The translations under genes and the position numbers were made by a program. A DNA stretch of 35,669 bases from a virus (lineage: Duplodnaviria; Caudoviricetes). The notes under the pieces were generated by a model. It had not been told where the DNA came from. It made no database searches and worked only from the letters and a program-made list of their open reading frames with translations. How positions within the stretch are numbered: position 1 is the first letter of the stretch; every line of letters starts with the position of its first letter. Where the stretch lies: the IMG/VR virus record IMGVR_UViG_3300032290_000659, positions 1 through 35,669 of that record; one strand, given 5' to 3'. Shown piece by piece: positions 4,011 to 24,097 of this stretch.

Positions 4011-4100
4011 GTCGTTTGAGTTGTTTTTGACTTTTTAAGTATTGCAGAGATTGCTGGACTTTGCAACCTCTGCTGTGCCAGTTTCAGAACTGGATAAGTT

Positions 4101-4280
4101 TCATGCAAACACCTCAGTCAGTTTGATGAACTTACCACCACGAACTTCATAGATGTTGACACGATTTCCATGAAGTTCTACACTCCAATCAAATGCAACA
4201 TCATAAGCATGTTCGAGATCAGTGTACCATTCTGCATCATCTTTGCAGAAGTCGGATGAAGTTGGAAGAACAGCAAACAT
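4101..4280 (-). CDS. hypothetical protein, 59 aa
   Basis: Manual read: MFAVLPTSSDFCKDDAEWYTDLEHAYDVAFDWSVELHG...; lies between elements at 4074 and 4340. Confidence 0.7.
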   Translation of the reverse strand: MFAVLPTSSDFCKDDAEWYTDLEHAYDVAFDWSVELHGNRVNIYEVRGGKFIKLTEVFA

Positions 4281-4339
4281 GTCGGTGGTTGTTTTCGACT
4301 CTTTTAATATACAGGTTTTTGAGCACTGTGCTCATTTCA

Positions 4340-4363
4340 TGTGCCACCTTGAGAATTGGCACA
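4340..4363. promoter_or_regulatory. Palindromic early-promoter element with perfect arms
   Basis: TGTGCCA-N10-TGGCACA. Confidence 0.75.
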
Positions 4364-4529
4364 TTGATGGCGGATCCTGGTATCAGTGTCTGGTGTCATT
4401 TGAGACTCGCTGAGAACCCAGTCCACCACTGAAGCAAAAACAGGAAAAACTTGCAATTTCACTGATCCTGATGTCTGTGTCATGCCGTGCAAATGAAAAA
4501 ACAGAAAAAATGATTTTTCATAAAAACAT

Positions 4530-4560
4530 AAAAAAAGAGAGGTATTTCTACCTCTCTTGA
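4530..4560 (-). terminator. Intrinsic terminator
   Basis: AAGAGAGGTA-tttc-TACCTCTCTT next to an A-run (U-tract on the minus strand). Confidence 0.8.
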
Positions 4561-4563
4561 TAA

Positions 4564-4695
4564 TCAGAACTCAATCGGTTCAGATGTTGGTTCGGAAGTG
4601 TTAATCTGTTCTTCAGTCAGAGTATCAAGAATCTGAAGAATCTCTTCACCAGTGTTACCTTTACGGAGAAGACTCATCATCACAGATTTGGTCAT
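4564..4695 (-). CDS. hypothetical protein, 43 aa
   Basis: Manual read: MTKSVMMSLLRKGNTGEEILQILDTLTEEQ...; followed by a terminator. Confidence 0.65.
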   Translation of the reverse strand: MTKSVMMSLLRKGNTGEEILQILDTLTEEQINTSEPTSEPIEF

Positions 4696-4765
4696 AATCA
4701 AAAAGAAAAAAAGTAAGGAACAGTTGAGCAGTTTTAAGACTTGCTTAGGTCTATTGAATCAGTCT

Positions 4766-4975
4766 TCAGTCATTGTCGAGTTCATAAACAAGATCTTCAA
4801 GTTCTTTCAAAAGTTCAGGAGTGAAAAGTTCAACGATTGGTGCAATAGGTCCATCATGTTCATCGAAATGATACAAATTATATTCATACTCATAATACAA
4901 ATCCTCATCTAGAGTCATTAGATTCTCTAGTTGTTGCTCTATACTCTGAATGAGTTGTTCTTGAGTTTCAGTCAT
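4766..4975 (-). CDS. acidic hypothetical protein
   Basis: Track ORF, start moved to MTETQEQ. Confidence 0.65.
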   Translation of the reverse strand: MTETQEQLIQSIEQQLENLMTLDEDLYYEYEYNLYHFDEHDGPIAPIVELFTPELLKELEDLVYELDND

Positions 4976-4976
4976 T

Positions 4977-5189
4977 TCAACCTCCACCGTACACACAATC
5001 TATAATGCCAGCAGAATGTTGTACGTTTTCGATAACAGTGAACTTTGCACACTCATCAAACTCTTCAGCATAATACTCTTTGAACTCTTTGATGAACAAT
5101 TCGCGGCAGTGGTCTTTCGATTCAGCAGCAATTACAACCATGCCACTGGTGTAATCAGAAAGGATTTCGTTGATGATGTAGAGATTCAT
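4977..5189 (-). CDS. hypothetical protein
   Basis: MNLYIINEILSDYTSGMVVIAAES...VYGGG; ATG overlaps the upstream stop. Confidence 0.7.
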   Translation of the reverse strand: MNLYIINEILSDYTSGMVVIAAESKDHCRELFIKEFKEYYAEEFDECAKFTVIENVQHSAGIIDCVYGGG

Positions 5190-5374
5190 AGTTCGACAAT
5201 CCAATCAGAATCAGAAGTGAGATTGACCCAGAAAAAGTTTTTACAGTTGAGTGATCGCAGAAACAAACGATCACCTTTGTTTTGTTCAATGATGCACTCC
5301 GATTCTTGATTCATAAGATTGCAGAATCGGTTTTTCGCTTTTTTAGATTTTGGAGTGACAAATGCAGTTTCCAT
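5186..5374 (-). CDS. hypothetical protein
   Basis: VTPKSKKAKNRFCNLM...FFWV; operon context. Confidence 0.7.
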   Translation of the reverse strand: METAFVTPKSKKAKNRFCNLMNQESECIIEQNKGDRLFLRSLNCKNFFWVNLTSDSDWIVEL

Positions 5375-5379
5375 GATCT

Positions 5380-5544
5380 TTAGTGGCGATCAGAAATGTT
5401 CCAAACATTGGTGGGTTGAGGTTGAATCAGACCAGCGCGAACTTTAGCACTGTACTCTGCTTCTTGTTGCAACTGTTGTTTGTAAGATTGAATTGCAATT
5501 TGCACTGCAGGATCATTCTTAGCGGTTTCGTTCAGAATAAACAT
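5380..5544 (-). CDS. hypothetical protein, 54 aa
   Basis: Manual read: MFILNETAKNDPAVQIAIQSY...WNISDRH; promoter at 5568-5627. Confidence 0.65.
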   Translation of the reverse strand: MFILNETAKNDPAVQIAIQSYKQQLQQEAEYSAKVRAGLIQPQPTNVWNISDRH

Positions 5545-5567
5545 GATTGAATTGCTTGAACTCTTTA

Positions 5568-5627
5568 AGAATACAAGGGCACCGCAGAGACCGCAAGTGC
5601 CCTTGTGCCAGTTGTCAAAGTGTCACA
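5568..5627 (-). promoter_or_regulatory. Early-promoter cassette (element, hairpin, -10)
   Basis: TGTGCCAgttgtcaaagTGTCACA at 5604-5627; AAGGGCAC..GTGCCCTT stem; TATTCT at 5568-5573. Confidence 0.75.
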
Positions 5628-5925
5628 CTGCTACTTTTTGATTGAACCAGAGTCTTTCATCTTCACTGACAATTTCACCATCTTTCCGATAATAAGTTTT
5701 CGTTGCACCTGGCATGTTCCAAAGTTTGCCATCATTAGCAATAATTGCCATGAAAGCATAATCAAAACTATGCTCATTCATCAGAGTTTCAACATACTCT
5801 TCTGCAAGTTTTTTAGAATCAAACAAACGAGTGGTTTGTGCAGTTTCACCCTCATAATCAGTTCCGCCCATTACCATGTAGGCAGAAAAGTTAGGATTTG
5901 CTTCAGAGAAAGAAACGAAAGTCAT
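5623..5925 (-). CDS. hypothetical protein
   Basis: 100-aa ORF whose stop lies inside the 5604 element. Confidence 0.7.
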   Translation of the reverse strand: MTFVSFSEANPNFSAYMVMGGTDYEGETAQTTRLFDSKKLAEEYVETLMNEHSFDYAFMAIIANDGKLWNMPGATKTYYRKDGEIVSEDERLWFNQKVAV

Positions 5926-5949
5926 TGTGGTGGTCTCTTGGACTCTTTA

Positions 5950-6007
5950 AGAATACAGGATTTGAGGCGATGTGCTCATTTGGTGTGCCAGTTCTACAAG
6001 TGTCACA
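5950..6007 (-). promoter_or_regulatory. Early-promoter cassette
   Basis: Element at 5984-6007; TATTCT at 5950-5955. Confidence 0.75.
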
Positions 6008-6287
6008 CTGCAAGGATTTCGAGATCACCATGCTTCAGAGCACGATTCAATTCGCTACCCCAGGATGTTGCTTCTCGTGCTTCACTATCGCTCAGAAGAT
6101 CAATCCAACGAAGTGCAGCAGCATCATCTTCAAAAGCATACTGATAGATTTTATCAGGATTGCTGTTGAAGATAACCAGCAGATCATAGGTTCCTTCCAT
6201 CTCTCCAGAGATTACAGAGAGTTGGGAGATTGCACTGCTGTTTACAGACTGGTGAACAAAAGTGCGTGAGGCGGTTGCGGTTGTCAT
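6003..6287 (-). CDS. hypothetical protein (KTSC-like N-terminus possible)
   Basis: VNSSAIS...LLVIFNSNPDKIYQY loosely resembles KTSC; stop lies inside the element. Confidence 0.65.
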   Translation of the reverse strand: MTTATASRTFVHQSVNSSAISQLSVISGEMEGTYDLLVIFNSNPDKIYQYAFEDDAAALRWIDLLSDSEAREATSWGSELNRALKHGDLEILAV

Positions 6288-6310
6288 GTTTGGTGTTCCT
6301 TGAACTTCTT

Positions 6311-6369
6311 AAGAATACAGGATTTTGGACGTTGTGCTCATTTTATGTGCCACCTATTCAACTGGCACA
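6311..6369 (-). promoter_or_regulatory. Early-promoter cassette
   Basis: TGTGCCA-N10-TGGCACA at 6346-6369; nearly the same block as 4305, 5949 and 7084. Confidence 0.75.
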
Positions 6370-6545
6370 TCCTCCAGCAGTTCGGGACTGTATTCTGTAA
6401 CTTCTCGAATCAGTTCAGCATCAGAATAGGATGATAGATTGCCCTGCAAAGTGTCATAAACGAAACACTCCATTGTTTTCATGTCCATTCCATCTAGGAT
6501 CTGCTGAGCATAATCAGCAATCAGTTGTTCGCGGTTGAATGTCAT
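6354..6545 (-). CDS. hypothetical protein
   Basis: 63-aa ORF; stop lies in the element spacer. Confidence 0.7.
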   Translation of the reverse strand: MTFNREQLIADYAQQILDGMDMKTMECFVYDTLQGNLSSYSDAELIREVTEYSPELLEDVPVE

Positions 6546-6682
6546 TTTGTGTTGCAGTAGTTGGTGTTAATTTGGCAGAAACGATCTGCTTGTTGTTCTT
6601 GATACTCATTGGTTGTTGCATGTGCAATCAGACCAAAGCGAAGACCAAGTGCAAGAGTAGCAATCAGAAATGCAATTCTCAT
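6542..6682 (-). CDS. small membrane or secreted peptide, 46 aa
   Basis: Manual read: MRIAFLIATLALGLRFGLIAHATTNEYQ...; ATGA overlaps. Confidence 0.6.
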   Translation of the reverse strand: MRIAFLIATLALGLRFGLIAHATTNEYQEQQADRFCQINTNYCNTK

Positions 6683-6807
6683 TTTTTTGATTTTTTGTGA
6701 CGATAAGATGCAGAAGGGTCAGGATCATAAAGACCGCCACCAGAGCGATCTTCAAGATAAAATAGAAACGCGAACATTGTCACAATAAACCCACCTAAAA
6801 TCAACAT
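6679..6807 (-). CDS. small membrane peptide, 42 aa
   Basis: Manual read: MLILGGFIVTMFAFLFYLEDRSGGGLYDPDP... Confidence 0.55.
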   Translation of the reverse strand: MLILGGFIVTMFAFLFYLEDRSGGGLYDPDPSASYRHKKSKK

Positions 6808-6809
6808 AA

Positions 6810-7058
6810 TCAACAAGCACCTTGCATAAAGTTGTACTCTTGAACTAGATCAATGTTGTCACCAGTGATAACATAATCAAGTGCAAGACGCTCATCAATC
6901 TCACGAATTGCATCTTTTTTGCTGATGCACTTTTGAGAGATTGTATCAACACCCTTCCAAGATAGAATCTTGAGAGTGTGAGTGGAGCAATCCTCAATGG
7001 GATAGAATCCCACGAGCATAGTTTTGTCTTTGGACTGAAGTGTGGGAAACTCAATCAT
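6810..7058 (-). CDS. hypothetical protein
   Basis: 82-aa ORF downstream of a promoter cassette. Confidence 0.7.
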   Translation of the reverse strand: MIEFPTLQSKDKTMLVGFYPIEDCSTHTLKILSWKGVDTISQKCISKKDAIREIDERLALDYVITGDNIDLVQEYNFMQGAC

Positions 7059-7083
7059 CAGGTGGTGTTCCTCTCGACTTCTT

Positions 7084-7142
7084 AAGAATACAGGATTTTG
7101 AGCACTGTGCTCATTTACTGTGCCAGTTCCACAAGTGTCACC
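7084..7142 (-). promoter_or_regulatory. Early-promoter cassette
   Basis: Element at 7119-7142; inverted repeat TGAGCAC-T-GTGCTCA; TATTCT at 7085-7090. Confidence 0.75.
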
Positions 7143-9083: not shown

Positions 9084-9779
9084 TTACCCTCTCATTGTTC
9101 CAGTTGTTATACCAGTTTTTTTATTCATTTTTGCCTTAAATTGTCTAGTATAGATACTATCTCTTTTTTGTTTTCCTTTTTTTGGATCTTCATCTCCCCT
9201 TACTGCAGAAGGTGTAAATGCAACTTTATCACCTGGTTTTGCACCTGCATGTTTTAGAGCATCCTTTCCACCACGAAGTTCTTTTTTGAAACTTGTTTGT
9301 CTTTGTGGTAGTTTATCTGGATCATTTTTACGATAATCGTCATCAGTATAAACTCCAACATTATGTACTGGTTTAGATGTACGATCACCACCTAATTGCT
9401 TTCTCAGTGTTTTGAGGTGACTAACTCTTTTTGATGTTGGAGTTACTTTATCTACTTTTCCTCCTCTCCTTGTTACAAATTTACCAGTTCTAAGATTTTT
9501 ATGATACGTATTTCGTAGAGCAAAGTCACTTTGATTAGCATCAGTGTCTACTGTAGTATAATGATGAGCAGATCTGGTGGATTCATCTCCTACAGAATCT
9601 TTTCCACTCGCAGGTCTTTTGAATCCCGCCTTCTTCAACGCTACTCTATCTGAAGTATTTCTTCTTTGTCTTAATCTTTCTGCTGATGATCCAGATGTTC
9701 CTCGGGACGCAAGGCGTCGTCTACCGCGTTCTGGTGTTGAGGATTCTGCAAGTTCTAAAAACTCTTTAAAGGTAATCAT
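9084..9779 (-). CDS. putative internal head protein (capsid-targeting-like N-terminus), basic; paralog of 9809-10483
   Basis: MITFKEFLELAE resembles the T4 CTS MKTYQEFIAE; late-promoter core ATAAATA at about 9800-9806. Confidence 0.7.
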   Translation of the reverse strand: MITFKEFLELAESSTPERGRRRLASRGTSGSSAERLRQRRNTSDRVALKKAGFKRPASGKDSVGDESTRSAHHYTTVDTDANQSDFALRNTYHKNLRTGKFVTRRGGKVDKVTPTSKRVSHLKTLRKQLGGDRTSKPVHNVGVYTDDDYRKNDPDKLPQRQTSFKKELRGGKDALKHAGAKPGDKVAFTPSAVRGDEDPKKGKQKRDSIYTRQFKAKMNKKTGITTGTMRG

Positions 9780-9808
9780 GAGGTTATTGTTTTTTCAAAT
9801 ATTTATGA

Positions 9809-10483
9809 TTACCCTCTCATTGTACCCATCGTCCTACCAGTCTTTGGATTCATTTTTGCTTTCAATACCTTCGTATAGATCTTGTCTCTTTTTTGTTTTC
9901 CTTTTATTTTGTCTTCACCACTCATAGTTCCTGAAGGTTCTGACGTAACTTTATCACCTGGTTTTGCACCTGCTTTTTGAAGTGCTTTTGGAACTGATTG
10001 CACTTCTTTCTTGAAACTCCTTCCTCTTGAGATTAAGTCTTCTCGATCATTTTTGGCATGAGGAGTATCACTTAGAATTGCAACATCATGTACTGGTTTT
10101 GATGTACGATCACCACCTAACTGCTTTCTTAATGCTTTTGCGTGTCTTACTCTAGATGCAGTTGATCTTACTCTAGATTGCCCTCTTCCAGATCCAACAT
10201 TTTTAAGTGGTATTTGATCTAGAACGTAATCACTTTGATTTTTATAAGTGCCCACTGTAGAACGATGATGAGGTGATGCCGAAGCATCAGTTTCTTTAGG
10301 TTCTTCGCCAGATTCACGTCTCTTGAATCCTGCTTTTTTTAGTGCTACTTTATCTGAGATTCTTCTTCTAGCATCTATTCTATCCCATGTATTTTCACCT
10401 GGACCACGAGAAGCAAGTCTTCTTCTACCTCCTTCTGGTGAAGATGATTCGGCAAGTTCTAAAAACTCTTTGAAGGTAATCAT
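9809..10483 (-). CDS. putative internal head protein (capsid-targeting-like N-terminus), basic; paralog of 9084-9779
   Basis: Same N-terminus; CTAAATA at about 10502-10508; shares LRKQLGGDRTSKPVH, AGAKPGDKV and GTMRG. Confidence 0.7.
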   Translation of the reverse strand: MITFKEFLELAESSSPEGGRRRLASRGPGENTWDRIDARRRISDKVALKKAGFKRRESGEEPKETDASASPHHRSTVGTYKNQSDYVLDQIPLKNVGSGRGQSRVRSTASRVRHAKALRKQLGGDRTSKPVHDVAILSDTPHAKNDREDLISRGRSFKKEVQSVPKALQKAGAKPGDKVTSEPSGTMSGEDKIKGKQKRDKIYTKVLKAKMNPKTGRTMGTMRG

Positions 10484-10908
10484 TGAAATACTTTTTTTAA
10501 GTATTTAGAAAAGGGATTTACTCCTGTTCGCATTGTTTTCTTATATTGTTCTAAACCTGGATTGACAGCATCAATCTTTACATATAATTTTTCAGGTATA
10601 TTTCCAAAATAAGATTGCAACCAAGGACACAACCAAACTTCTTCATAGAGTTCTGTATCCAAATAAACAGATCCTTCATCATTAGTTTTTTGAAGTTGAA
10701 GTTCAGTATCATATTGATCAAAAGATTCTGTACTTACAATAATATCAAGTCGATCTCCTTTTTTAGCAGATCGACTCATATCAATTTCAAAATACTCATT
10801 CAAAACAAGTTCAGTACCATTACACAATGGTTCTTCTACAGTGTTTTGATGTTCATGATCAAAAACCCAAATAAAGTCTTTTTTGATTGCAGTGAGATTG
10901 AGTTGCAT
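10480..10908 (-). CDS. conserved hypothetical protein (DUF6717-like)
   Basis: WVFD..EPLCNG..GSVY..WLCPWLQSYFG..PEKLYV; start moved to MQLNL. Confidence 0.6.
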   Translation of the reverse strand: MQLNLTAIKKDFIWVFDHEHQNTVEEPLCNGTELVLNEYFEIDMSRSAKKGDRLDIIVSTESFDQYDTELQLQKTNDEGSVYLDTELYEEVWLCPWLQSYFGNIPEKLYVKIDAVNPGLEQYKKTMRTGVNPFSKYLKKVFQ

Positions 10909-10978
10909 AATTTGATTTATTTTTCCAATTATATCATGAAATATAAAATCATGAAGAGAATTGTGACGTGTCCTAAAA

Positions 10979-12367
10979 TTAATGATTAGGATCAATATAT
11001 GTTCCAGTATGTTTCACTGGATCTAAAGGTTTTGCCCCTTTTGCTTTTTGTTTTGGTGAACGATGTCTTGCAATTCCTGCTTGCACACCTTTTTCATTTG
11101 GAGCACTCATTCCCTGTGTTCTTGTATTCAATGATGCTCTACGATTTCCTACAGGTTGTGATACTAATGTAGTTCCAGGTCTTGCTGAAGATGATACTCT
11201 TTTTTTAATGTCTTGCATTGCTCTCGCTGCACCAACTTTATCAGTTGTTTCTCCAGTTTTAGTTGTATTCTGAATAAAAGTTCCAGGTTTATCACCTGCA
11301 GAATACTTTACTTGAATTGGATGCTTTCGATGAGTAAATGTATGCTCTCCTGTCTTTTCATTCTTTTTGTAATCAATGTCAGGATGTCCTGGATTGTTGA
11401 TTGGTTCAGCGAATGTTTTAACTGATGCTCTTACTTTATTAACATCAGTTCCTTTTTTTCTTGCAGCACTCAATGGACTTTCTGTTCCACCTCTCAATCT
11501 TTTTGATGCAGGAGGAATCCAAGCATCATCTAAAAGTTTGATAGATTCTCTTACTTGTGGATGTCTGATATGTGTATCAGAAGTTGAAAAATCTCTTTTT
11601 TTACCTCTATTTGCTTCAAATCCATGAGATTTATAGAAGTCTGCTAATTTCTTTTTCTTTCCAGGATCAGGATCTTGATTCAAGGTGATTTTTTTACCAG
11701 TTTTATCTGCATACTTACCAAGACCTTTCATCACTCTGGTTCCTATTCCCTTTCCCTGAAGATGGGGAGGAACCCATAATTGATCCACACGAATGTTACC
11801 TGTTCTTTCACTATGAGAAGTATCAACATTCACGCCACGATGTTTCCTCCCATATGCCTTTGCTATTTTAGAAAGAACTTCTTTAGGTGGTCTTGCTTCT
11901 TTTGCTTCTGAAACACTTGGTTTTTTCTTTGGTTGCGTTTGAGTTCTTCTTTTGAATCTACTGTCTGCAGGCAATAAACTTTGATATTTTTTAGGAATTT
12001 TTGGAGAATCTATTACACCTTGTTTTTCTTTTGAAATATGTTTATTCGCATAATCACTACTCATGGTTGTAGAATAATGTTGTCTACCCCATTTATCAGT
12101 TCCTCTTTGCCCATCTGTTTTTACAACTTTTCCAGGTGGTTTGTCCTCAATATGCTTTTTAGGAACTCTAAAAGATACTAGTTTAGTGTCCTCACCTTTT
12201 CTATTTCCAAAAGATTTTGCTGTTTCTTTTGAAGTTGAAGTATAAACTTCTGGTGTGTTAAATCCTGATTTTTTAATTTTATCTGCAGAAGACGCGGAAG
12301 TTCCGTGATACATTTTTACGAACTTCAATCTCTTTGCTTCTGTAATGAATTGTGTAAAAGTTTTCAT
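10979..12367 (-). CDS. putative virion-packaged multidomain protein: CTS-like leader, ADP-ribosyltransferase-like domain, GNAT acetyltransferase, unknown domain
   Basis: MKTFTQFITEA; MYHGTS..IKKSGF..VYTS..AKSF; LWVPPHLQGKGIGT..LADFYKSHGF; TATAAATA at 12469-12476. Confidence 0.75.
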   Translation of the reverse strand: MKTFTQFITEAKRLKFVKMYHGTSASSADKIKKSGFNTPEVYTSTSKETAKSFGNRKGEDTKLVSFRVPKKHIEDKPPGKVVKTDGQRGTDKWGRQHYSTTMSSDYANKHISKEKQGVIDSPKIPKKYQSLLPADSRFKRRTQTQPKKKPSVSEAKEARPPKEVLSKIAKAYGRKHRGVNVDTSHSERTGNIRVDQLWVPPHLQGKGIGTRVMKGLGKYADKTGKKITLNQDPDPGKKKKLADFYKSHGFEANRGKKRDFSTSDTHIRHPQVRESIKLLDDAWIPPASKRLRGGTESPLSAARKKGTDVNKVRASVKTFAEPINNPGHPDIDYKKNEKTGEHTFTHRKHPIQVKYSAGDKPGTFIQNTTKTGETTDKVGAARAMQDIKKRVSSSARPGTTLVSQPVGNRRASLNTRTQGMSAPNEKGVQAGIARHRSPKQKAKGAKPLDPVKHTGTYIDPNH

Positions 12368-12373
12368 TTTCAA

Positions 12374-14307: not shown

Positions 14308-14799
14308 CTAACGACTCATAATTGCTTTGAGAATGGCATTGTGAGATCGTTGTTGAGTTCTCTCTTTTGTGTCAAGAGAAGTTCTAATTTTGTTTCTACG
14401 AGAAATACTACCTCTCGTTTGTTCTCTTGATTTCATGATATTGAACGGAGTTTGTGTCATATGAGGATCTTGTTCTAATTGTAAGTCCTCTTGTTGATTT
14501 CGTCTTTCTAATCTTGCTTGCCTTTCCGCTTCTCTTCTTTCTTGTTCTGCCTGTCCTTTTGCTCTTAATTGTTTCTGCCTTTCTTCATGATCTTGTCTCA
14601 TTTGTGCATGTTTTTCCTTTTGTGCTTGCACACTTGCTCGCTGTCTTTCTGTAAAATCACTTGCAGAAGTTTTTGATCTTTCAGCAGCAATTCTTCTTCT
14701 CTGTACAAGTCTTTTTGCTGGAGCATCCTGCTGTGATATAGTATCAAGATTTCTTCTTAATGATTGCACATCTTCATTAAATTTCTGAAATGTTTTCAT
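14308..14799 (-). CDS. putative internal head protein, coiled-coil, CTS-like N-terminus
   Basis: MKTFQKFNE; ATAAATA at about 14820-14826. Confidence 0.65.
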   Translation of the reverse strand: MKTFQKFNEDVQSLRRNLDTISQQDAPAKRLVQRRRIAAERSKTSASDFTERQRASVQAQKEKHAQMRQDHEERQKQLRAKGQAEQERREAERQARLERRNQQEDLQLEQDPHMTQTPFNIMKSREQTRGSISRRNKIRTSLDTKERTQQRSHNAILKAIMSR

Positions 14800-14840
14800 C
14801 GTATCTTGACTTTTTTAGATATTTATTCTAATATATGCTT

Positions 14841-14870
14841 AAAGGAGAGGTTTTACCCTCTCCTTTTTTT
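14841..14870. terminator. Intrinsic terminator, possibly bidirectional
   Basis: AAAGGAGAGG-ttttac-CCTCTCCTTTTTTT. Confidence 0.75.
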
Positions 14871-14871
14871 A

Positions 14872-15117
14872 TTATATTTTGTTAATTTGTCTTGCAACTC
14901 TCTTAGCGTGCTTTTCCACTTTCTTTCCACCACTTTGGTCTAACACTTGTTTCTTAATTTCCTTTTTTGTTGGTTTTTTTGTAGGACCATCATAGGATTG
15001 AAGAGTATAAGTGAGAGTGCCACTTGCATCTCTATTGACAGTTCCTGGAACTGCATGTGGAGGAGTTTCTGGTTTCTTTCCTTCACAGATTTTGTAGAAC
15101 TCTCTAAATGTCAGCAT
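14872..15117 (-). CDS. putative small internal head protein, basic, CTS-like N-terminus
   Basis: MLTFREFYKICE; ATAAATA at about 15134-15140. Confidence 0.65.
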   Translation of the reverse strand: MLTFREFYKICEGKKPETPPHAVPGTVNRDASGTLTYTLQSYDGPTKKPTKKEIKKQVLDQSGGKKVEKHAKRVARQINKI

Positions 15118-17978: not shown

Positions 17979-18401
17979 TCAAACAGCAAGAGCACCAGAG
18001 GGGATTTCAACGATTTCGGGCATTTTGCTGCCGAACTCATTACGATTATAGCACACCCACTCACCATTTAGAGTGTAGAGATATGCGTACTCTTCACCTT
18101 CTGCAAGGTAATCGTACTTATTTGCATCAAGGCGAGGAGGACACTCACCATCATTTTCTCTCACAAAATACTGGGGACCATATTCTTCAACTTCAATCGA
18201 AGAACCTTCAAAAGTCCAACGATTCTTAGTCCAACAGGAGGACATATCTCCACCATCAATCAATTCAGCGGCAAGTTCTTTGCTATTGTAGTGAGTGGTG
18301 AGAATACGACCCAACCATTCAGGATAACCATCTGAGTGATGATACACAGAGAGCACAGATTCGTCAGAGAGTTGAATACCGATGCGACTTCTTGTTGCCA
18401 T
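17979..18401 (-). CDS. conserved phage hypothetical protein
   Basis: MATRSRIG..SVYHHSDGYPEWLG..HY..LIDGGDMS..EEYAY; element at 18496. Confidence 0.75.
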   Translation of the reverse strand: MATRSRIGIQLSDESVLSVYHHSDGYPEWLGRILTTHYNSKELAAELIDGGDMSSCWTKNRWTFEGSSIEVEEYGPQYFVRENDGECPPRLDANKYDYLAEGEEYAYLYTLNGEWVCYNRNEFGSKMPEIVEIPSGALAV

Positions 18402-18514
18402 GAGTTTACTTGAAAGTGGTTTGTGATGTCTTGAGGCAACCTCTGTGCCTCATGAACTTAAGATACTGCATCCAGAGGGCAGGTGGAAGGTGTAGTGTGC
18501 CACTTCCTCAACTG

Positions 18515-19174
18515 TCACCTGAGTTCATAAACATAGATGTGCTTTCCTGGTGTCTCTATCCACTGTGCTTCTCCAGATTTAAGTGCATCAAGTAATCTTA
18601 CCGCAGATTGGGCAAGAACTCTTTCTCCAGTCTCATTTAGTATTTTTTTATTGATGTCTCTTACACACTTATCATGATATTTCTTACCATTAAACATAAT
18701 AACTTTTCCTGGAGCAGTCATTCCTCGATGTTCAAAATTAGATGCTTTGTAAATAACACCTTCATGACCATGAAAAGGATCTGCATATGATACGATTCTT
18801 TTAATATCAGTATTCTTCTTCAACCATCGAATTGTTTTTCCGATGAAGTAAGATTCAGTATTTCTAGGAGTTTTGTCAATGCAACAAAGTCTTCTGAGTT
18901 CAATAACATCATCTGGATTATCTGCATATCTTTTCCAAGCATTTACCATCGCAAGGTGTCCGTACACCATTGCTCCGATAATATCACTTTCATACATCAA
19001 TTTGAACACATGCCTCTGAATCAGAGCAGCAGTAGATTTAGAGTAGTGCCAGTGCTCTAAGAATTGTTTTACATCTAAAAGAGTTGTTTCTTCTACTCTA
19101 AACTGTTTTACTGGAACATCAGAAAGATCAACTTCTGTGGATAAAAACTGCTCTAATAGTGGATTAACTGGCAT
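18515..19174 (-). CDS. mom: Mom-family (GNAT-fold) DNA adenine modification enzyme
   Basis: HWHYS, IIGAMVYG, IELRRL, PRNTESYFI, IVSYADPFHGHEGVIYKASNF. Confidence 0.75.
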   Translation of the reverse strand: MPVNPLLEQFLSTEVDLSDVPVKQFRVEETTLLDVKQFLEHWHYSKSTAALIQRHVFKLMYESDIIGAMVYGHLAMVNAWKRYADNPDDVIELRRLCCIDKTPRNTESYFIGKTIRWLKKNTDIKRIVSYADPFHGHEGVIYKASNFEHRGMTAPGKVIMFNGKKYHDKCVRDINKKILNETGERVLAQSAVRLLDALKSGEAQWIETPGKHIYVYELR

Positions 19175-20126
19175 ACTGAAATATGGATGAGTTGATAAGA
19201 TACGATTGAACTTTTACATTGATTGTTTGATTATAAGACAAATTTTTTGCAAGTGCAATGACTTTCGGATTGTGAAGAATATCAAAATAAGAATCTCTTT
19301 CTTCTTGACTGTCAAACAAATAACAATCCGATCCGCTGCTTACATTTGTATTTTCCAATTTCTCTGCTCTCAGTTTAGGAATGTTAGAGTACACGACTAA
19401 ACCATATTTACCTTCTTTTTTAGCATTGTCTTTGACTGCTTGGATTTTTTCTGCAACCTTAGAACCAGAGAATGTTATCCTCTTATACTCACTTTGTTTT
19501 TTACAATTAAAAACATAATTGTAAGCACCTTCATTATAGTGATGAAGAATTGTATCCTGATGGACATCTACTTCGACAATTTCTCCAGTAGAATACTCTA
19601 CAAATGTATTTTTATGTTTTTTATTCTTAGTGACTTCAACAAAACAATAATTATTATCAATCTTAATTTTTTCTACTTGAAACCAGTCGTAATCTTTATC
19701 TTGAAGTTGAAGAATAAGTGGAAGAGGAAACTTACCTTTAAGAGTACCACCATCCTTTAGAACTTGAGAAATAACATGCCTAAACCATTGAGTGAATGTA
19801 TTAACTTTCTTTCCTTGATATGGAACTTCTTTGTCAAGATCCATTAAAGCAGTATCATATTTTTTTCCGAACTCAAATTTTTTGATTGATTTCAAAAAAC
19901 CATAATCTTCTTTTCCACAAACAAAATAGTCATGGTTACCAAGTCCATAAAGAAGAGAAAGAGTAAGAAGATGTGGTGATGCAACTATTACCGTTTCTCC
20001 TGATGGATGAAGATTATTGTAAAAATCAGAAGACCTAATTGTATTTTTAATAAATGCAATTTTTTCGCATAGCACTTTATATTGTGCTTGCTTTTCCTGA
20101 TTGAGTTTCATGATTGTTGGTTGCAT
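19164..20126 (-). CDS. degenerate, likely inactive N6-adenine methyltransferase-like protein (Eco57I/gamma-class layout)
   Basis: KYDTALMD..EVPYQ in place of KFDxIxGNPPYQ; VLKDGGTL..FP; YLFDSQEE..ILHNPK C-terminal pattern; no SAM-binding GxG motif seen. Confidence 0.5.
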   Translation of the reverse strand: MQPTIMKLNQEKQAQYKVLCEKIAFIKNTIRSSDFYNNLHPSGETVIVASPHLLTLSLLYGLGNHDYFVCGKEDYGFLKSIKKFEFGKKYDTALMDLDKEVPYQGKKVNTFTQWFRHVISQVLKDGGTLKGKFPLPLILQLQDKDYDWFQVEKIKIDNNYCFVEVTKNKKHKNTFVEYSTGEIVEVDVHQDTILHHYNEGAYNYVFNCKKQSEYKRITFSGSKVAEKIQAVKDNAKKEGKYGLVVYSNIPKLRAEKLENTNVSSGSDCYLFDSQEERDSYFDILHNPKVIALAKNLSYNQTINVKVQSYLINSSIFQYAS

Positions 20127-20132
20127 GTGAGT

Positions 20133-20190
20133 ACAATATCAAAGAATGAAGAAAAAATCTGAAAGATGTGCCAGTTTTTATGCTGGCATA
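20133..20190 (-). promoter_or_regulatory. Early-promoter cassette for the pseudo-MTase and mom genes
   Basis: TGTGCCA-N10-TGGCATA at 20167-20190; TATTGT at 20133-20138. Confidence 0.65.
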
Positions 20191-21581
20191 AGGTCAAGCA
20201 TAAGTTCCTCTACACTTTTACTTCTATAATCTTCAAGAAGATTTTCATGAATCCATTCCATTTCAATATCTTTAGCAGTTTTTCTGAATTGTTCTTGAAT
20301 ATCTTCGATCACTTCTTCGGATTCACCTCGACCTGTAACTTCTGTGAAAATAGAGTCAAGAGGCACACCATGTTGAAGGAGAGAGATGATGATTTGCTTG
20401 GTCAAATCAGAAACTTCTGAAGTGTCATCTTCATGCTCTACAATGCTTACAACTCCATACTTTTTCCACTCACCCGCTGCACGAATACAACGACCGATAG
20501 TTTGGGTAATGAAGATGTCATTGAGACTAGAACGCATGAAACAGACGCCAGTAAATCCTTTCACATCAATACCTTCGGCAATCATTTCATAATGAAGAAC
20601 AAGAAGTTTAGCATTATGATCTGATCCATATTCTTTAAGTTTAGGCATAAACTTTTCTTTGGTCATCATTTTGCCATCAATATATCCACCATTTTGTGAA
20701 TCAATTGAAAGAACATGATAACCCTTCTCAGATGCCCAATCCTGGAACTTCGTCTTATATAAAAGATCCTTGATATTCTTGGTGCCCTTCATGCAATAAA
20801 GAATTTTATGTGCATGAGTATGTGTATGAGTTTTTTCGTAATAGTCTACGTTCTCTACAATAGTTTGAAAGTCAATTTGCTCAGGATGAGAGTTCTTAAT
20901 ACAAGCATCAGATTTTTGACGATGCAAAAACGGTTCAACAATGTAACCTTTTTCAACAAGATAATTAAAAGGTACACTTGCAATAATTTCTCCATAGACA
21001 GATACATTATTCATACCAGGTCCATTAGAAGATCCAGATGAAGTGTATCTAGGAGTTGCAGTAAAGAAAAAGCAATTTGAAGATTTTTTGCTTGTATCTT
21101 TTACTGCATCAAAATAATTACCTTTAACTGCATTGTGAGATTCATCAAAATATGCAACAGTAATTGGAATTCCTGAAGAAATTACCTTATCAAGACTATC
21201 ATACGTTGAAAAAAGAATCAAAGGAAGATTATTTTCTTTTGCAATCTCATAAGTTTCATAAATTTGTTGTGGAATTGTTGTAGGAAGTTCAGGTTGAATT
21301 TTTACTTTTTTACGAACACGATGAATAATAGATGATTGAGAACTTACTTCACGATGAGCAAAATCATAGTCGTAAAGGTAAGTATCAAACTCAATAAAAA
21401 GTTGTTGTCCAAGCATGAGACGAGGAGAGACAACAAGAATTACATTTCCTGGAAGAAGAAATCTTTTTGTATCTTCTGCCATACAAATGGTTTTTCCAGA
21501 ACCAGTAGGTGATACAATGATACCTTTATTAGTCAGCATCATTTTAGATTTAATTTCTTCTTGATGTTCACGCAGTTTCAT
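20178..21581 (-). CDS. SF2 helicase/ATPase, restriction-enzyme (ResIII/Type ISP) type
   Basis: SPTGSGKT, FDESH, FTATP, AEGIDV, QTIGRCIR. Confidence 0.9.
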   Translation of the reverse strand: MKLREHQEEIKSKMMLTNKGIIVSPTGSGKTICMAEDTKRFLLPGNVILVVSPRLMLGQQLFIEFDTYLYDYDFAHREVSSQSSIIHRVRKKVKIQPELPTTIPQQIYETYEIAKENNLPLILFSTYDSLDKVISSGIPITVAYFDESHNAVKGNYFDAVKDTSKKSSNCFFFTATPRYTSSGSSNGPGMNNVSVYGEIIASVPFNYLVEKGYIVEPFLHRQKSDACIKNSHPEQIDFQTIVENVDYYEKTHTHTHAHKILYCMKGTKNIKDLLYKTKFQDWASEKGYHVLSIDSQNGGYIDGKMMTKEKFMPKLKEYGSDHNAKLLVLHYEMIAEGIDVKGFTGVCFMRSSLNDIFITQTIGRCIRAAGEWKKYGVVSIVEHEDDTSEVSDLTKQIIISLLQHGVPLDSIFTEVTGRGESEEVIEDIQEQFRKTAKDIEMEWIHENLLEDYRSKSVEELMLDLMPA

Positions 21582-22144
21582 TTCAGATTCTCCTTTACAG
21601 TGTTACGAAAAATAGTCCAAAAAGCAACATTACCATTTACTCGCCTAGAAATAAGTTTTCTATTCAAGCAAAGTGCTTGATCTGCATAAGCATGTGAACG
21701 GTGAATACCAGCAGCAGAGGTAAAACAAATAAGGTTTTTTCCATTGGGTCTCCAACCCTCATTCAAACTCGCTGTTGCATGGTTTCCAAGATTATGTTCG
21801 TTTGTGAGATACTTATCAGGATCTGCAACAAACTTACATTGAACAGTAGCAAGACTGCCATCTAATGTGGATTTGCCAAATCCATCAATACCATTATCAA
21901 TACCTAGATTTGGTTCATATTCCCAAAGATAGGTAAAAGTGTGATCTCCATTATGAAACTTGAGAAAAAACTCAGCAAAAAATTCCCAACCATCACCCAT
22001 ATATTGAAGTGGATTGTAACAGTCGGGGTTTTGCTTAGATGCCTGTTTAATCAAACGATTGATGAAAACAGACAGTTTGTTTGTCTCAAGAAGGAAATCA
22101 ATATCCTCACAGTTGTGGAGGAAATGATGCTTCAGTTGATACAT
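21578..22144 (-). CDS. Mrr-like PD-(D/E)xK endonuclease
   Basis: GDGWE..DNGIDG..VQCK (D-QxK); ATGA overlap with the helicase; element at 22202. Confidence 0.75.
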   Translation of the reverse strand: MYQLKHHFLHNCEDIDFLLETNKLSVFINRLIKQASKQNPDCYNPLQYMGDGWEFFAEFFLKFHNGDHTFTYLWEYEPNLGIDNGIDGFGKSTLDGSLATVQCKFVADPDKYLTNEHNLGNHATASLNEGWRPNGKNLICFTSAAGIHRSHAYADQALCLNRKLISRRVNGNVAFWTIFRNTVKENLK

Positions 22145-22189
22145 TGTGTTTTGTTTAGAACATAGTAATCATAGCATAGAGTAGGTTCA

Positions 22190-22426
22190 TCAGACAAACA
22201 CTGTGCCACTTTGAGGAGTGGTCCGGTGTTGTCTGATGAACTTCTGTGCTTGGAGAACTGTGCTTACATCAGTGAGTTGTTCTCCGTTATAAATGATTAC
22301 TAATCGTTTTCCCCAAGGAACTGCGGCGTAACCATCTTTTGTTTCAAATCCATCAGAAACTTTCGACGTAGGCGTAGTCGAACTTTTCTGCTTCTGCGAA
22401 GTAGTTTGTTTCGTATTTTTTGGCAT
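22190..22426 (-). CDS. hypothetical protein
   Basis: GFETKDGYAAVPW..IIYNGEQ; overlaps the end of the upstream nuclease; start uncertain. Confidence 0.55.
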   Translation of the reverse strand: MPKNTKQTTSQKQKSSTTPTSKVSDGFETKDGYAAVPWGKRLVIIYNGEQLTDVSTVLQAQKFIRQHRTTPQSGTVFV

Positions 22427-22865
22427 AACCATCAAGGAAAAAGTATTCTGGGTGAGGATCACAGTGTCCAGTCAGAACTGTGCCATTGAACTTGATATTA
22501 TAAATCAAACTGGAAGGAACACAACATGCTTTTCCAAATTTGATGTCAGTAAAAATAAAAAAATCTGCAAGTTTTTCATTGACAAAATCCTTTGATCGAC
22601 TATTCTTTAGGATTACATTACGCACCGCCGCTTGCGAAACATTCTTAAACTGAGTTACTTTAGATTCGTATGTAAATTTATCTTTACTAATCAAATCCAC
22701 GCCTGGAAGATTGACACGCTTTAGTTGCCCTTTACTGTATACATCATAGGCAATTTCTACAAGTTCTCCTGCTTTTGGAAAGCGAAGATTATTGGATGTA
22801 TATTCTTTAAGACTATACAGAAGTTTGGAGAGACGATTCAGTTCAAAAGTGTTGAAGTCAATCAT
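22353..22865 (-). CDS. PD-(D/E)xK endonuclease-like protein
   Basis: GELVE..PGVDLI..YESK. Confidence 0.65.
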   Translation of the reverse strand: MIDFNTFELNRLSKLLYSLKEYTSNNLRFPKAGELVEIAYDVYSKGQLKRVNLPGVDLISKDKFTYESKVTQFKNVSQAAVRNVILKNSRSKDFVNEKLADFFIFTDIKFGKACCVPSSLIYNIKFNGTVLTGHCDPHPEYFFLDGYAKKYETNYFAEAEKFDYAYVESF

Positions 22866-22876
22866 GATGTAGTAAT

Positions 22877-24097
22877 TCAGCGTTTGATGGTTGAAATAGC
22901 AGGTAAACCCTTACAAAACACAATGTCAACCACGTTTTGGATTTTCTTGGCGGTGCTAATGCCAACAGAGTTAAAGGTTGGAATGATCACAAGACCATAT
23001 GACTTATGATAGTCCTCAAGTTTGCCAGGTGTCAAGTCTCCAGAGCGAAGACGTGCGGCATCTTTATGATGCAATCGCACCACCCGACCAATAGTTTGAC
23101 AGATACCAATGGCATCCATAGATCGCATAAAGATTACTGCCTCAAGTCCAGAAACATTGATACCCTCAGATAGAATAGAATAATGAAGTAAGACAAACTT
23201 CTTAGAGTCATCAACACTCCATTCGTGAAGAGTGTCAAAGAACTCTTCACGATTTACTTTTTTGCCATCAACAATCGCACCAGTCTTGGAAGTAATGACC
23301 ATCCAAGAATATCCACGATCTTCTAGTTCTTTACAGAAATCAGTCTGTGAGATTAGATTAGTAATTTGTTTAGTTGCCTTGGCACAAATTAGAATCTTAG
23401 ATACTTCTGCCTCATCAATACTTTCTATGAGATGATTGCAATCACGTTCAAACACATTAGTGCTTGACAAAGAAACTTGTTTAGCAACAATCTTTGGCGG
23501 AATAATGTAACCTTCATTTACCATTCTTGGTGCAGAAACATTTGCAATGATATTACCATAAACCTGAACATTGTTCATTCCAGGTTTTTTAGGAGTTGAA
23601 GAATACTTAGGAGTTGCAGTATAGAAATAGCAGCGATCTGCATGTTGACTGAAGTATTCAACGGCAGGATAAAAGTTCTTTTGCACAGAATTATGTGCCT
23701 CATCAAAATGAATCGTATCCACCTTAATATCAGACTCCATCACTCGATGAAGAGAATGATACGTCGTGAAAATGAGTTTATGAGTTTTTGTATGAAACCA
23801 CCATTTGAACAAAACATCAGGTTTTGTTGAAGAATGATGATGCGTATCACCAGAATGAACATGAAAAACTGAAGCATTATCAATATGCTCCAGATATTCG
23901 GAAGACAGTTGATTCGCAAGCAACAATCGTGGAGCAACAATTACAACAGTTTGAGGAGTATCAGACTCAAACTGTCGAATTGTATCTGCAACTCCTACAA
24001 GAGTCTTACCTGCACCTGTAGTTGCACAAACGATTCCTTTATCGTATTGTTCTAGTGCAACACAAGATTCTTTTTGATGAGTGCGAAGAGGAAGCAT
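22877..24097 (-). CDS. SF2 helicase/ATPase (ResIII-like), paralog of 20178-21581
   Basis: ATTGAGKT, FDEAH, YTATP, SEGINV, QTIGRVVR. Confidence 0.9.
   Translation of the reverse strand: MLPLRTHQKESCVALEQYDKGIVCATTGAGKTLVGVADTIRQFESDTPQTVVIVAPRLLLANQLSSEYLEHIDNASVFHVHSGDTHHHSSTKPDVLFKWWFHTKTHKLIFTTYHSLHRVMESDIKVDTIHFDEAHNSVQKNFYPAVEYFSQHADRCYFYTATPKYSSTPKKPGMNNVQVYGNIIANVSAPRMVNEGYIIPPKIVAKQVSLSSTNVFERDCNHLIESIDEAEVSKILICAKATKQITNLISQTDFCKELEDRGYSWMVITSKTGAIVDGKKVNREEFFDTLHEWSVDDSKKFVLLHYSILSEGINVSGLEAVIFMRSMDAIGICQTIGRVVRLHHKDAARLRSGDLTPGKLEDYHKSYGLVIIPTFNSVGISTAKKIQNVVDIVFCKGLPAISTIKR

Follow-up and report, generated by a model that had tools for sequence, protein, structure and literature searches.

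The stretch of DNA analyzed here, referred to as the window, is the complete 35,669-nucleotide (35.7-kb) viral record IMGVR_UViG_3300032290_000659. The locus in question comprises four consecutive minus-strand open reading frames (ORFs) for a Mrr-like nuclease, a superfamily 2 (SF2) helicase, a methyltransferase-fold protein devoid of catalytic motifs, designated X, and a DNA modifier of the Mom family (Table 1). An initial annotation, made from the nucleotide sequence, had proposed that these genes form a split restriction module resembling the Type ISP enzymes, in which a dead methyltransferase is paired with a Mom-type modifier. The gene arrangement it described was recovered in the ORF calls, including the ATGA at 21581-21578 that is common to the nuclease and helicase ORFs and the 11-nt overlap between X and mom. 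In protein comparisons, the best relatives of the window's small minus-strand genes belong to the Kyanoviridae, and a T4-like cyanophage is therefore the likely source of the window.

Table 1. Features of the four-gene locus and of the edges of the site it occupies (window coordinates).
Feature	Position	Strand	Remarks
Mrr-like PD-(D/E)xK-type nuclease	21578..22144	-	188 aa; E54, D87, Q102-x-K104
SF2 (ResIII-like) helicase/translocase	20178..21581	-	467 aa; motifs intact
X, pseudo-methyltransferase + target-recognition domain	19164..20126	-	320 aa, or 315 from second ATG
Mom-family GNAT DNA modifier	18515..19174	-	219 aa; PF25680
Promoter-like element GTGGCACA	22202..22209	-	5' of nuclease; putative promoter role
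Promoter-like element CTGGCACA	20167..20174	-	5' of X and mom; putative promoter role
Small conserved gene, upstream edge of variable cassette site	22190..22432	-	anchor of 49-locus survey
Conserved gene (phrog_1987), downstream edge of variable cassette site	17979..18401	-	PHROG match

Components of the locus

The nuclease carries the DNGID..QCK motif quoted in the initial annotation, and its residues E54, D87, Q102 and K104 are invariant in all 25 aligned homologues. It matches phrog_7683 (E = 3e-52), and its neighbors in the ESM Atlas bear the Mrr_cat_2 domain (score 0.94-0.95). The helicase matches Pfam ResIII (E = 7e-15) and presents every motif attributed to it (SPTGSGKT, DESH, TAT and QTIGRCIR), with Walker A, DE, TAT and QxxGRxxR invariant among 30 aligned homologues. 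The two proteins also occur as a natural fusion of 723 aa (P0060). A different joined form, the 411-aa P0061, links the N-terminal half of the nuclease to a methyltransferase and target-recognition domain (TRD) with an NPPY motif. PADLOC profiles yielded no match for the nuclease, X or Mom, and only weak generic matches for the helicase.

Protein X contains neither a [DNS]PP[YFW] motif nor methyltransferase motif I, and it produced no match in Pfam, PHROGs, PADLOC, cultured phages or the sequences of solved structures. Its AlphaFold model (mean predicted local distance difference test score, pLDDT, of 92) was best matched in Foldseek searches by CamA and M.TaqI (E about 5e-8), with template modeling (TM) scores of 0.54-0.57 to M.TaqI. 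X accordingly has a gamma-methyltransferase plus TRD fold of the M.TaqI type; its methyltransferase likeness and its lack of catalytic motifs had been noted in the initial annotation. An NPPY-type motif is present in none of 33 X homologues, as opposed to 33 of 33 of the corresponding subunits in the sister modules described below, and a motif I-like string is found in one of the 33 X homologues; across X, none of the residues in what was the motif IV loop is conserved. The X profile matches the NPPY subunit of the sister modules over 229 columns (P = 97%, E = 5e-11), with a degenerate NPPY column, and 13 control profiles reach a P of at most 2.7%; the match was obtained only with the 33-sequence profile, a 3-sequence profile of sister methyltransferases giving P = 1.3%. 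The homology upholds the suggested kinship of the locus to a restriction-modification-like module. The small methyltransferase subunit that supplies motifs X and I in the sister modules is absent from the window and from two related genomes that also carry X, G002 and G005, both of which are partial (72% and 64% complete, respectively). X homologues are no longer than 349 aa among 28 representatives. The ratio of nonsynonymous to synonymous substitution rates of X (dN/dS = 0.12-0.18 in three pairs) indicates that the gene is under purifying selection, and the same values rule out a decaying pseudogene.

A complex between the helicase and X was predicted with a score of 0.49 versus 0.00 for the best control, with at least 7% of contacts recurring between runs and a partner pLDDT of at least 79. 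Of 157 solved complexes, 116 attain the mark applied to such scores, as do 2 of 215 mismatched pairs; 18 of those solved complexes and both mismatches lie at or below 0.60, and the helicase-X score may stem from likeness to solved ISP enzymes. The prediction thus lends weak support to a helicase-X complex.

Formation of 6-NcmdA from Gly-tRNA would be expected of an enzyme of the Mom family. The fourth gene had been assigned to this family in the initial annotation, and its product matches both PF25680 (E = 2e-31; 110 bits versus a curated cut-off of 27.1) and the structure of phage Mu Mom (8bv8, E = 2e-9). Residues H43/Y44, R95, S108, D132 and Y142 of the window Mom correspond to Mu H58/Y59, R111, S124, D149 and Y159, and Mu R151, W48 and W181 have no counterpart, six of the nine mapped residues listed as important in the accessible text of PMC13219725 being kept.

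Each gene pair had also been credited with its own early-promoter element. The elements do end at 22202 and 20167, and their consensus [CG]TG[GT]CACA occurs in 16 minus-strand copies in the window, versus 1.24 expected under independent bases, and in 6 plus-strand copies. The count is above chance, yet the element is not special to the four-gene module, and a further copy lies at 18503, directly past mom. From its position ahead of genes, the element is probably an early promoter. A similar element precedes X in two other loci (L009 and L010) and the NPPY methyltransferase gene of phage Bellamy. The element is ancestral. A longer shared form, TGGCACA..AAATGAGCACA..CTGTATTCTTAA, recurs ahead of small genes at 4081-7133 (minus strand).

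Related modules and the variable cassette site

Relatives of the nuclease were surveyed in 38 viral loci. In 32 of these, a protein of 133-192 aa stands alongside the nuclease and bears GEVFTP/DxxAGxG, which correspond to methyltransferase motifs X and I; 30 of the 32 also display a helicase and a full methyltransferase-TRD gene with NPPY or NPPF and without motif I, the other two being cut by contig ends. Because the two genes jointly supply all motifs, the small subunit and the NPPY gene together look like a split methylase. Mom is present in none of these 32 loci, many of which span only 4-6 kb. Among the remaining loci, L076 and L077 encode a single-chain methylase with all motifs, one of them on a 372-kb contig, and L078 has a split form. 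The last three (L010-12, one genotype) resemble the window in carrying X and mom without the small subunit. The window helicase nests, in a quick tree, among the helicases of modules with motif-intact methyltransferases, and loss of catalysis is therefore the likely direction of change. On these comparisons, descent of the four-gene module from modules with motif-intact methyltransferases is shown. Genome-wide, no Mom was found in six cultured cyanophages having the small methyltransferase subunit, and exclusion between the two amounts to a trend only; absolute mutual exclusion is ruled out by one genome, G008, which has both. A search for a bacterial home of the module returned two matches in a genome collection, both on contigs of metagenome-assembled genomes; one of them is all but identical to phage locus L010, and such a home was rejected.

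A 133-aa protein with motifs X and I is likewise found beside several different NPPY-only methyltransferase genes of cyanophages (43 phage records; for example L001:4743-6958, L083:4436-5396, L084:3659-5396 and L085:1190-5432), and these combinations apparently represent an undescribed split-methylase family.

Merging near-identical loci left nine distinct X cassettes with readable context: the window, L004, L005, L006/7, L008, L009, L010-12, L043 and L106. A stand-alone adenine modifier lies directly behind X in all nine, a Mom in eight and a Dam-class D12 methylase in one (L106). Six of the eight X-linked Moms are of the window type and two belong to a second clade, 29% identical, one of which follows an inserted GIY-YIG/NUMOD3 nuclease. 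The 11-nt overlap between X and mom is kept in the window, L004, L005 and L043 despite different mom alleles. In G002, a window-type Mom is retained beside X although a second Mom is encoded elsewhere in the genome; no clear amino-methyltransferase was found in the 153 kb available of this genome. X itself is a mosaic: identity in the C-terminal half follows that of Mom (Mantel r = 0.60, p = 0.003, 8 loci), and no such covariation is seen for the N-terminal half (r = 0.12, p = 0.2, 8 loci). At L014 and L015, a weak match 5' of mom was identified as an unrelated intact methylase and discarded. The Mom family at large is found in 337 cultured phage records, and in five related genomes a second Mom clade occupies a fixed site, ahead of a conserved gene of large size (L146-L149 and G002:65591-66232), the G002 copy lying directly behind a GIY-YIG-like nuclease gene.

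In the nine cassettes, X is preceded by the Mrr-like nuclease and helicase in two and by a different nuclease-helicase fusion of about 760 aa in six, with one cut off; the N-terminus of the fusion weakly resembles GIY-YIG (MUG113, E = 0.018 in one). The same exchange of motors is seen alongside methylases with intact motifs, both when S-CAM7 isolates are compared and in MA01. The motor is therefore swappable and the modifier replaceable. These contexts amend the initial annotation, the overall architecture of which is largely supported. Its four genes are not a fixed unit, given that six of the eight X cassettes with a visible motor use the fusion, and the modifier need not be Mom, as illustrated by L106. 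The suggested association between mom and the NPPY-less allele holds in one direction only: X implies a modifier in every visible cassette, and Mom is not confined to X.

At the genomic site that holds the cassette in the window, X is present in 6 of 49 surveyed loci, and mom in 2 of the 43 X-free loci (one genotype). Ordinary nuclease-methylase pairs fill the site in L095/96, L097 and L105, and the site is a hotspot for ordinary restriction-modification pairs. In DSL-LC03, a nuclease-Mom pair sits behind the same anchor gene: a Type II-like nuclease gene overlaps the Mom gene (L039:6481-7651), with no methylase annotated in that stretch, which provides a cultured test case for Mom-based protection. 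A second SF2 helicase gene, 35% identical at the protein level to the module helicase, is located at 22877-24097 (minus strand) in the window and is kept upstream of the site in most relatives, with or without a cassette.

Other features of the window were recorded alongside. At 22353-22865 (minus strand) lies a gene for a possible further nuclease: its 170-aa product includes a string resembling PD-(D/E)xK (GVDL...YESK), lacks any family match, and is found in G002 and L097 and absent from L010-12. Several basic proteins starting with M(I/K/L)TFxxF are encoded at 9084-12373 and 14308-15117 (minus strand), including two apparent paralogues and one protein with a GNAT domain. RGCY is nearly absent from the window (AGCT, 4 versus 105 expected; AGCC, 1 versus 56; both strands), and this avoidance is common to close relatives and Bellamy, whatever the cassette.

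A proposed restriction system and its alternatives

We propose, with a probability of roughly 0.58, that the locus encodes an ATP-dependent restriction system carried by the phage, with site reading left to the dead methyltransferase and the marking of self to a separate modifier. X would clamp an adenine-containing site via its methyltransferase-TRD unit and dock on the helicase, which would translocate DNA, and the nuclease would cut unmarked DNA, be it the host chromosome or that of a co-infecting phage. Mom would acylate an adenine in or over the site, such that X would no longer bind phage DNA. X and mom, with their own promoter-like element, would make up an exchangeable specificity-and-protection half, and the nuclease and helicase an exchangeable motor half. 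Even when no cofactor is present, LlaGI and LlaBIII use their methyltransferase domain and TRD to clamp the site and flip the adenine, according to the accessible part of PMC4872093, and a catalytically dead unit can therefore plausibly still read DNA. A broader claim, which we hold at a little short of even odds, is that recognition and marking have become fully uncoupled: the methyltransferase would be reduced to a DNA reader, and self would be marked by whichever adenine modifier travels along, in this case a Mom that depends on tRNA and has matching specificity, with lytic cyanophages destroying host or rival DNA and swapping motor, reader and writer independently.

The nuclease, helicase and X could instead form a restriction machine by themselves, the adjacent mom being a gene of general anti-restriction function lodged in a hotspot for DNA modification, and self-protection coming from a core Mom, from host methylation or from timing, or being unneeded. 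Such an arrangement would fit the frequency of Mom in related phages without X, the apparent passenger mom of L095/L096, the two Mom clades found behind X at 29% identity and the Mom that rides with a homing-type nuclease. It is nonetheless an unlikely explanation for a modifier that stands directly behind X in 9 of 9 cassettes versus 2 of 43 loci without X, for an overlap that persists in four cassettes with differing mom alleles, and for the retention of a modifier beside X in G002 and G005 despite a core Mom. A very unlikely variant has X reading modified adenine, so that the nuclease, helicase and X would constitute a Type IV-like nuclease cutting methylated host DNA or modified rival-phage DNA while Mom masks the phage's own sites. 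Mrr proper is modification-dependent, and the lost NPPY loop could have reshaped the pocket for the flipped base; against this stand the pairing of X in L106 with an ordinary N6-methyladenine methylase, the protective mark expected of a classical system, and the former motif IV loop, in which no residue is conserved across X.

The module might also not be aimed at foreign DNA at all, being either a selfish element that promotes addiction or recombination, or a set of genes in which X guides Mom while the nuclease and helicase serve phage recombination or DNA turnover. A site that is both dispensable and variable (X in 6 of 49 loci), the differing cassettes of S-CAM7 isolates and the single promoter-like element common to X and mom would all be compatible with this. 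We regard it as quite unlikely because a nuclease-helicase lies upstream of X in all eight visible cases, the conserved gene nearby encodes a paralogous helicase without a nuclease, and Mu Mom is a self-sufficient, site-specific enzyme according to the available text of PMC13219725.

Restriction with a separate self mark remains our preferred reading, and a number of observations weigh against it. X is missing from 25 of the 26 viral mom loci, S-SSM7 has Mom alone, and four of five related genomes carry a Mom at a separate core site, G008, which also has the small methyltransferase subunit, being one of the four; at the family level, mom is thus independent of the other three genes to which the initial annotation had tied it. 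In L095/L096, mom adjoins a nuclease already provided with a methylase of its own, and Mom can therefore be a passenger at the site. Since the Mu-essential R151 is missing from the window Mom, its chemistry or activity is uncertain. The covariation between TRD and Mom could arise from simple linkage, and L010 and L043 have Moms that are 87% identical and TRDs that are 35% identical. A word-avoidance search for the target site found no cassette-specific word in G002 or G005, and the words avoided specifically in the window were mostly palindromes or weak. The readable context is that of nine distinct cassettes, most X homologues from protein searches having none, and Pfam by itself gives a weak Mrr assignment for the nuclease (Mrr_cat_2, E = 0.03, below the cut-off).

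If the preferred reading is correct, the locus would represent a naturally occurring restriction system whose self mark is not a methyl group and whose specificity subunit is a pseudo-enzyme. The surveyed loci would then outline its likely origin, from a single-chain methylase through a split methylase to a dead methylase with an outside modifier. The system would also furnish several Mom enzymes that may prefer other sites than the Mu enzyme does, and the module would be a candidate weapon in phage-phage competition or host DNA breakdown in cyanophages.

Comparison with known systems

The Type ISP enzymes LlaGI and LlaBIII combine, in the same order, a Mrr-family nuclease, an SF2 ATPase, a gamma-class N6-adenine methyltransferase fold and a TRD (as described in the accessible part of PMC4872093), and the domain types and order invoked in the initial annotation hold to that extent, with the window nuclease a putative member of the Mrr family. 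ISP enzymes are, however, single polypeptides, whereas the window system consists of three, is phage-encoded and has a separate modifier, and its X lacks the catalytic NPPY and the motif for binding S-adenosylmethionine. No ISP enzyme was matched by the X profile among solved structures, and none appears among the fold matches listed. Judged by its sequences, the module is ISP-like and not a member of Type ISP, having neither the single chain nor an active methylase. M.TaqI and CamA, gamma-class methyltransferases that are the best structural matches of X, are likewise active methylases, whereas X lacks motifs I and IV.

The closest relatives are the nuclease-helicase-split methyltransferase modules of Kyanoviridae (Bellamy gp85-88, S-CAM7 and ACG-2014f gp051-054), mostly annotated as hypothetical, which share orthologous nucleases (33-52% identity) and helicases (31-45%) and an NPPY subunit homologous to the window X; they differ in retaining NPPY and the 133-aa subunit with motifs X and I, and in having no Mom. 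This parent module, although present in cultured phages, is itself undescribed in the searchable literature. Neither the four-gene module, nor the split-methylase parent, nor a dead-methylase specificity subunit was found there, and the accessible parts of PMC12839542 and PMC12707154 contain nothing on the module; such neighborhoods may be listed in sources outside the scope of the search, namely subscription papers and the supplementary files of PMC7824862 and PMC13219725.

The Mom of phage Mu (PF25680, PDB 8bv8) is a GNAT-family homologue of the window Mom. In the available text of PMC13219725 it is a late, stand-alone anti-restriction enzyme using Gly-tRNA, whereas the gene for the window Mom follows that of the proposed specificity subunit and lies in a putative early region. 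The nearest precedent for the proposed pairing is that of the Mom-restriction endonuclease fusions of jumbo phages, in which momylation was proposed to shield phage DNA while the linked endonuclease attacks host DNA or that of superinfecting phages (Iyer et al. 2021, PMC7824862). There, Mom is fused to a simple endonuclease domain, and the accessible text mentions no helicase or dead-methyltransferase subunit. That Mom might serve as the protecting partner in a phage restriction pair was thus already predicted in 2021, in the part of PMC7824862 available, and the window locus, if read correctly here, would be a directly testable case of that prediction, with Mom as the modification component of a phage restriction-modification system.

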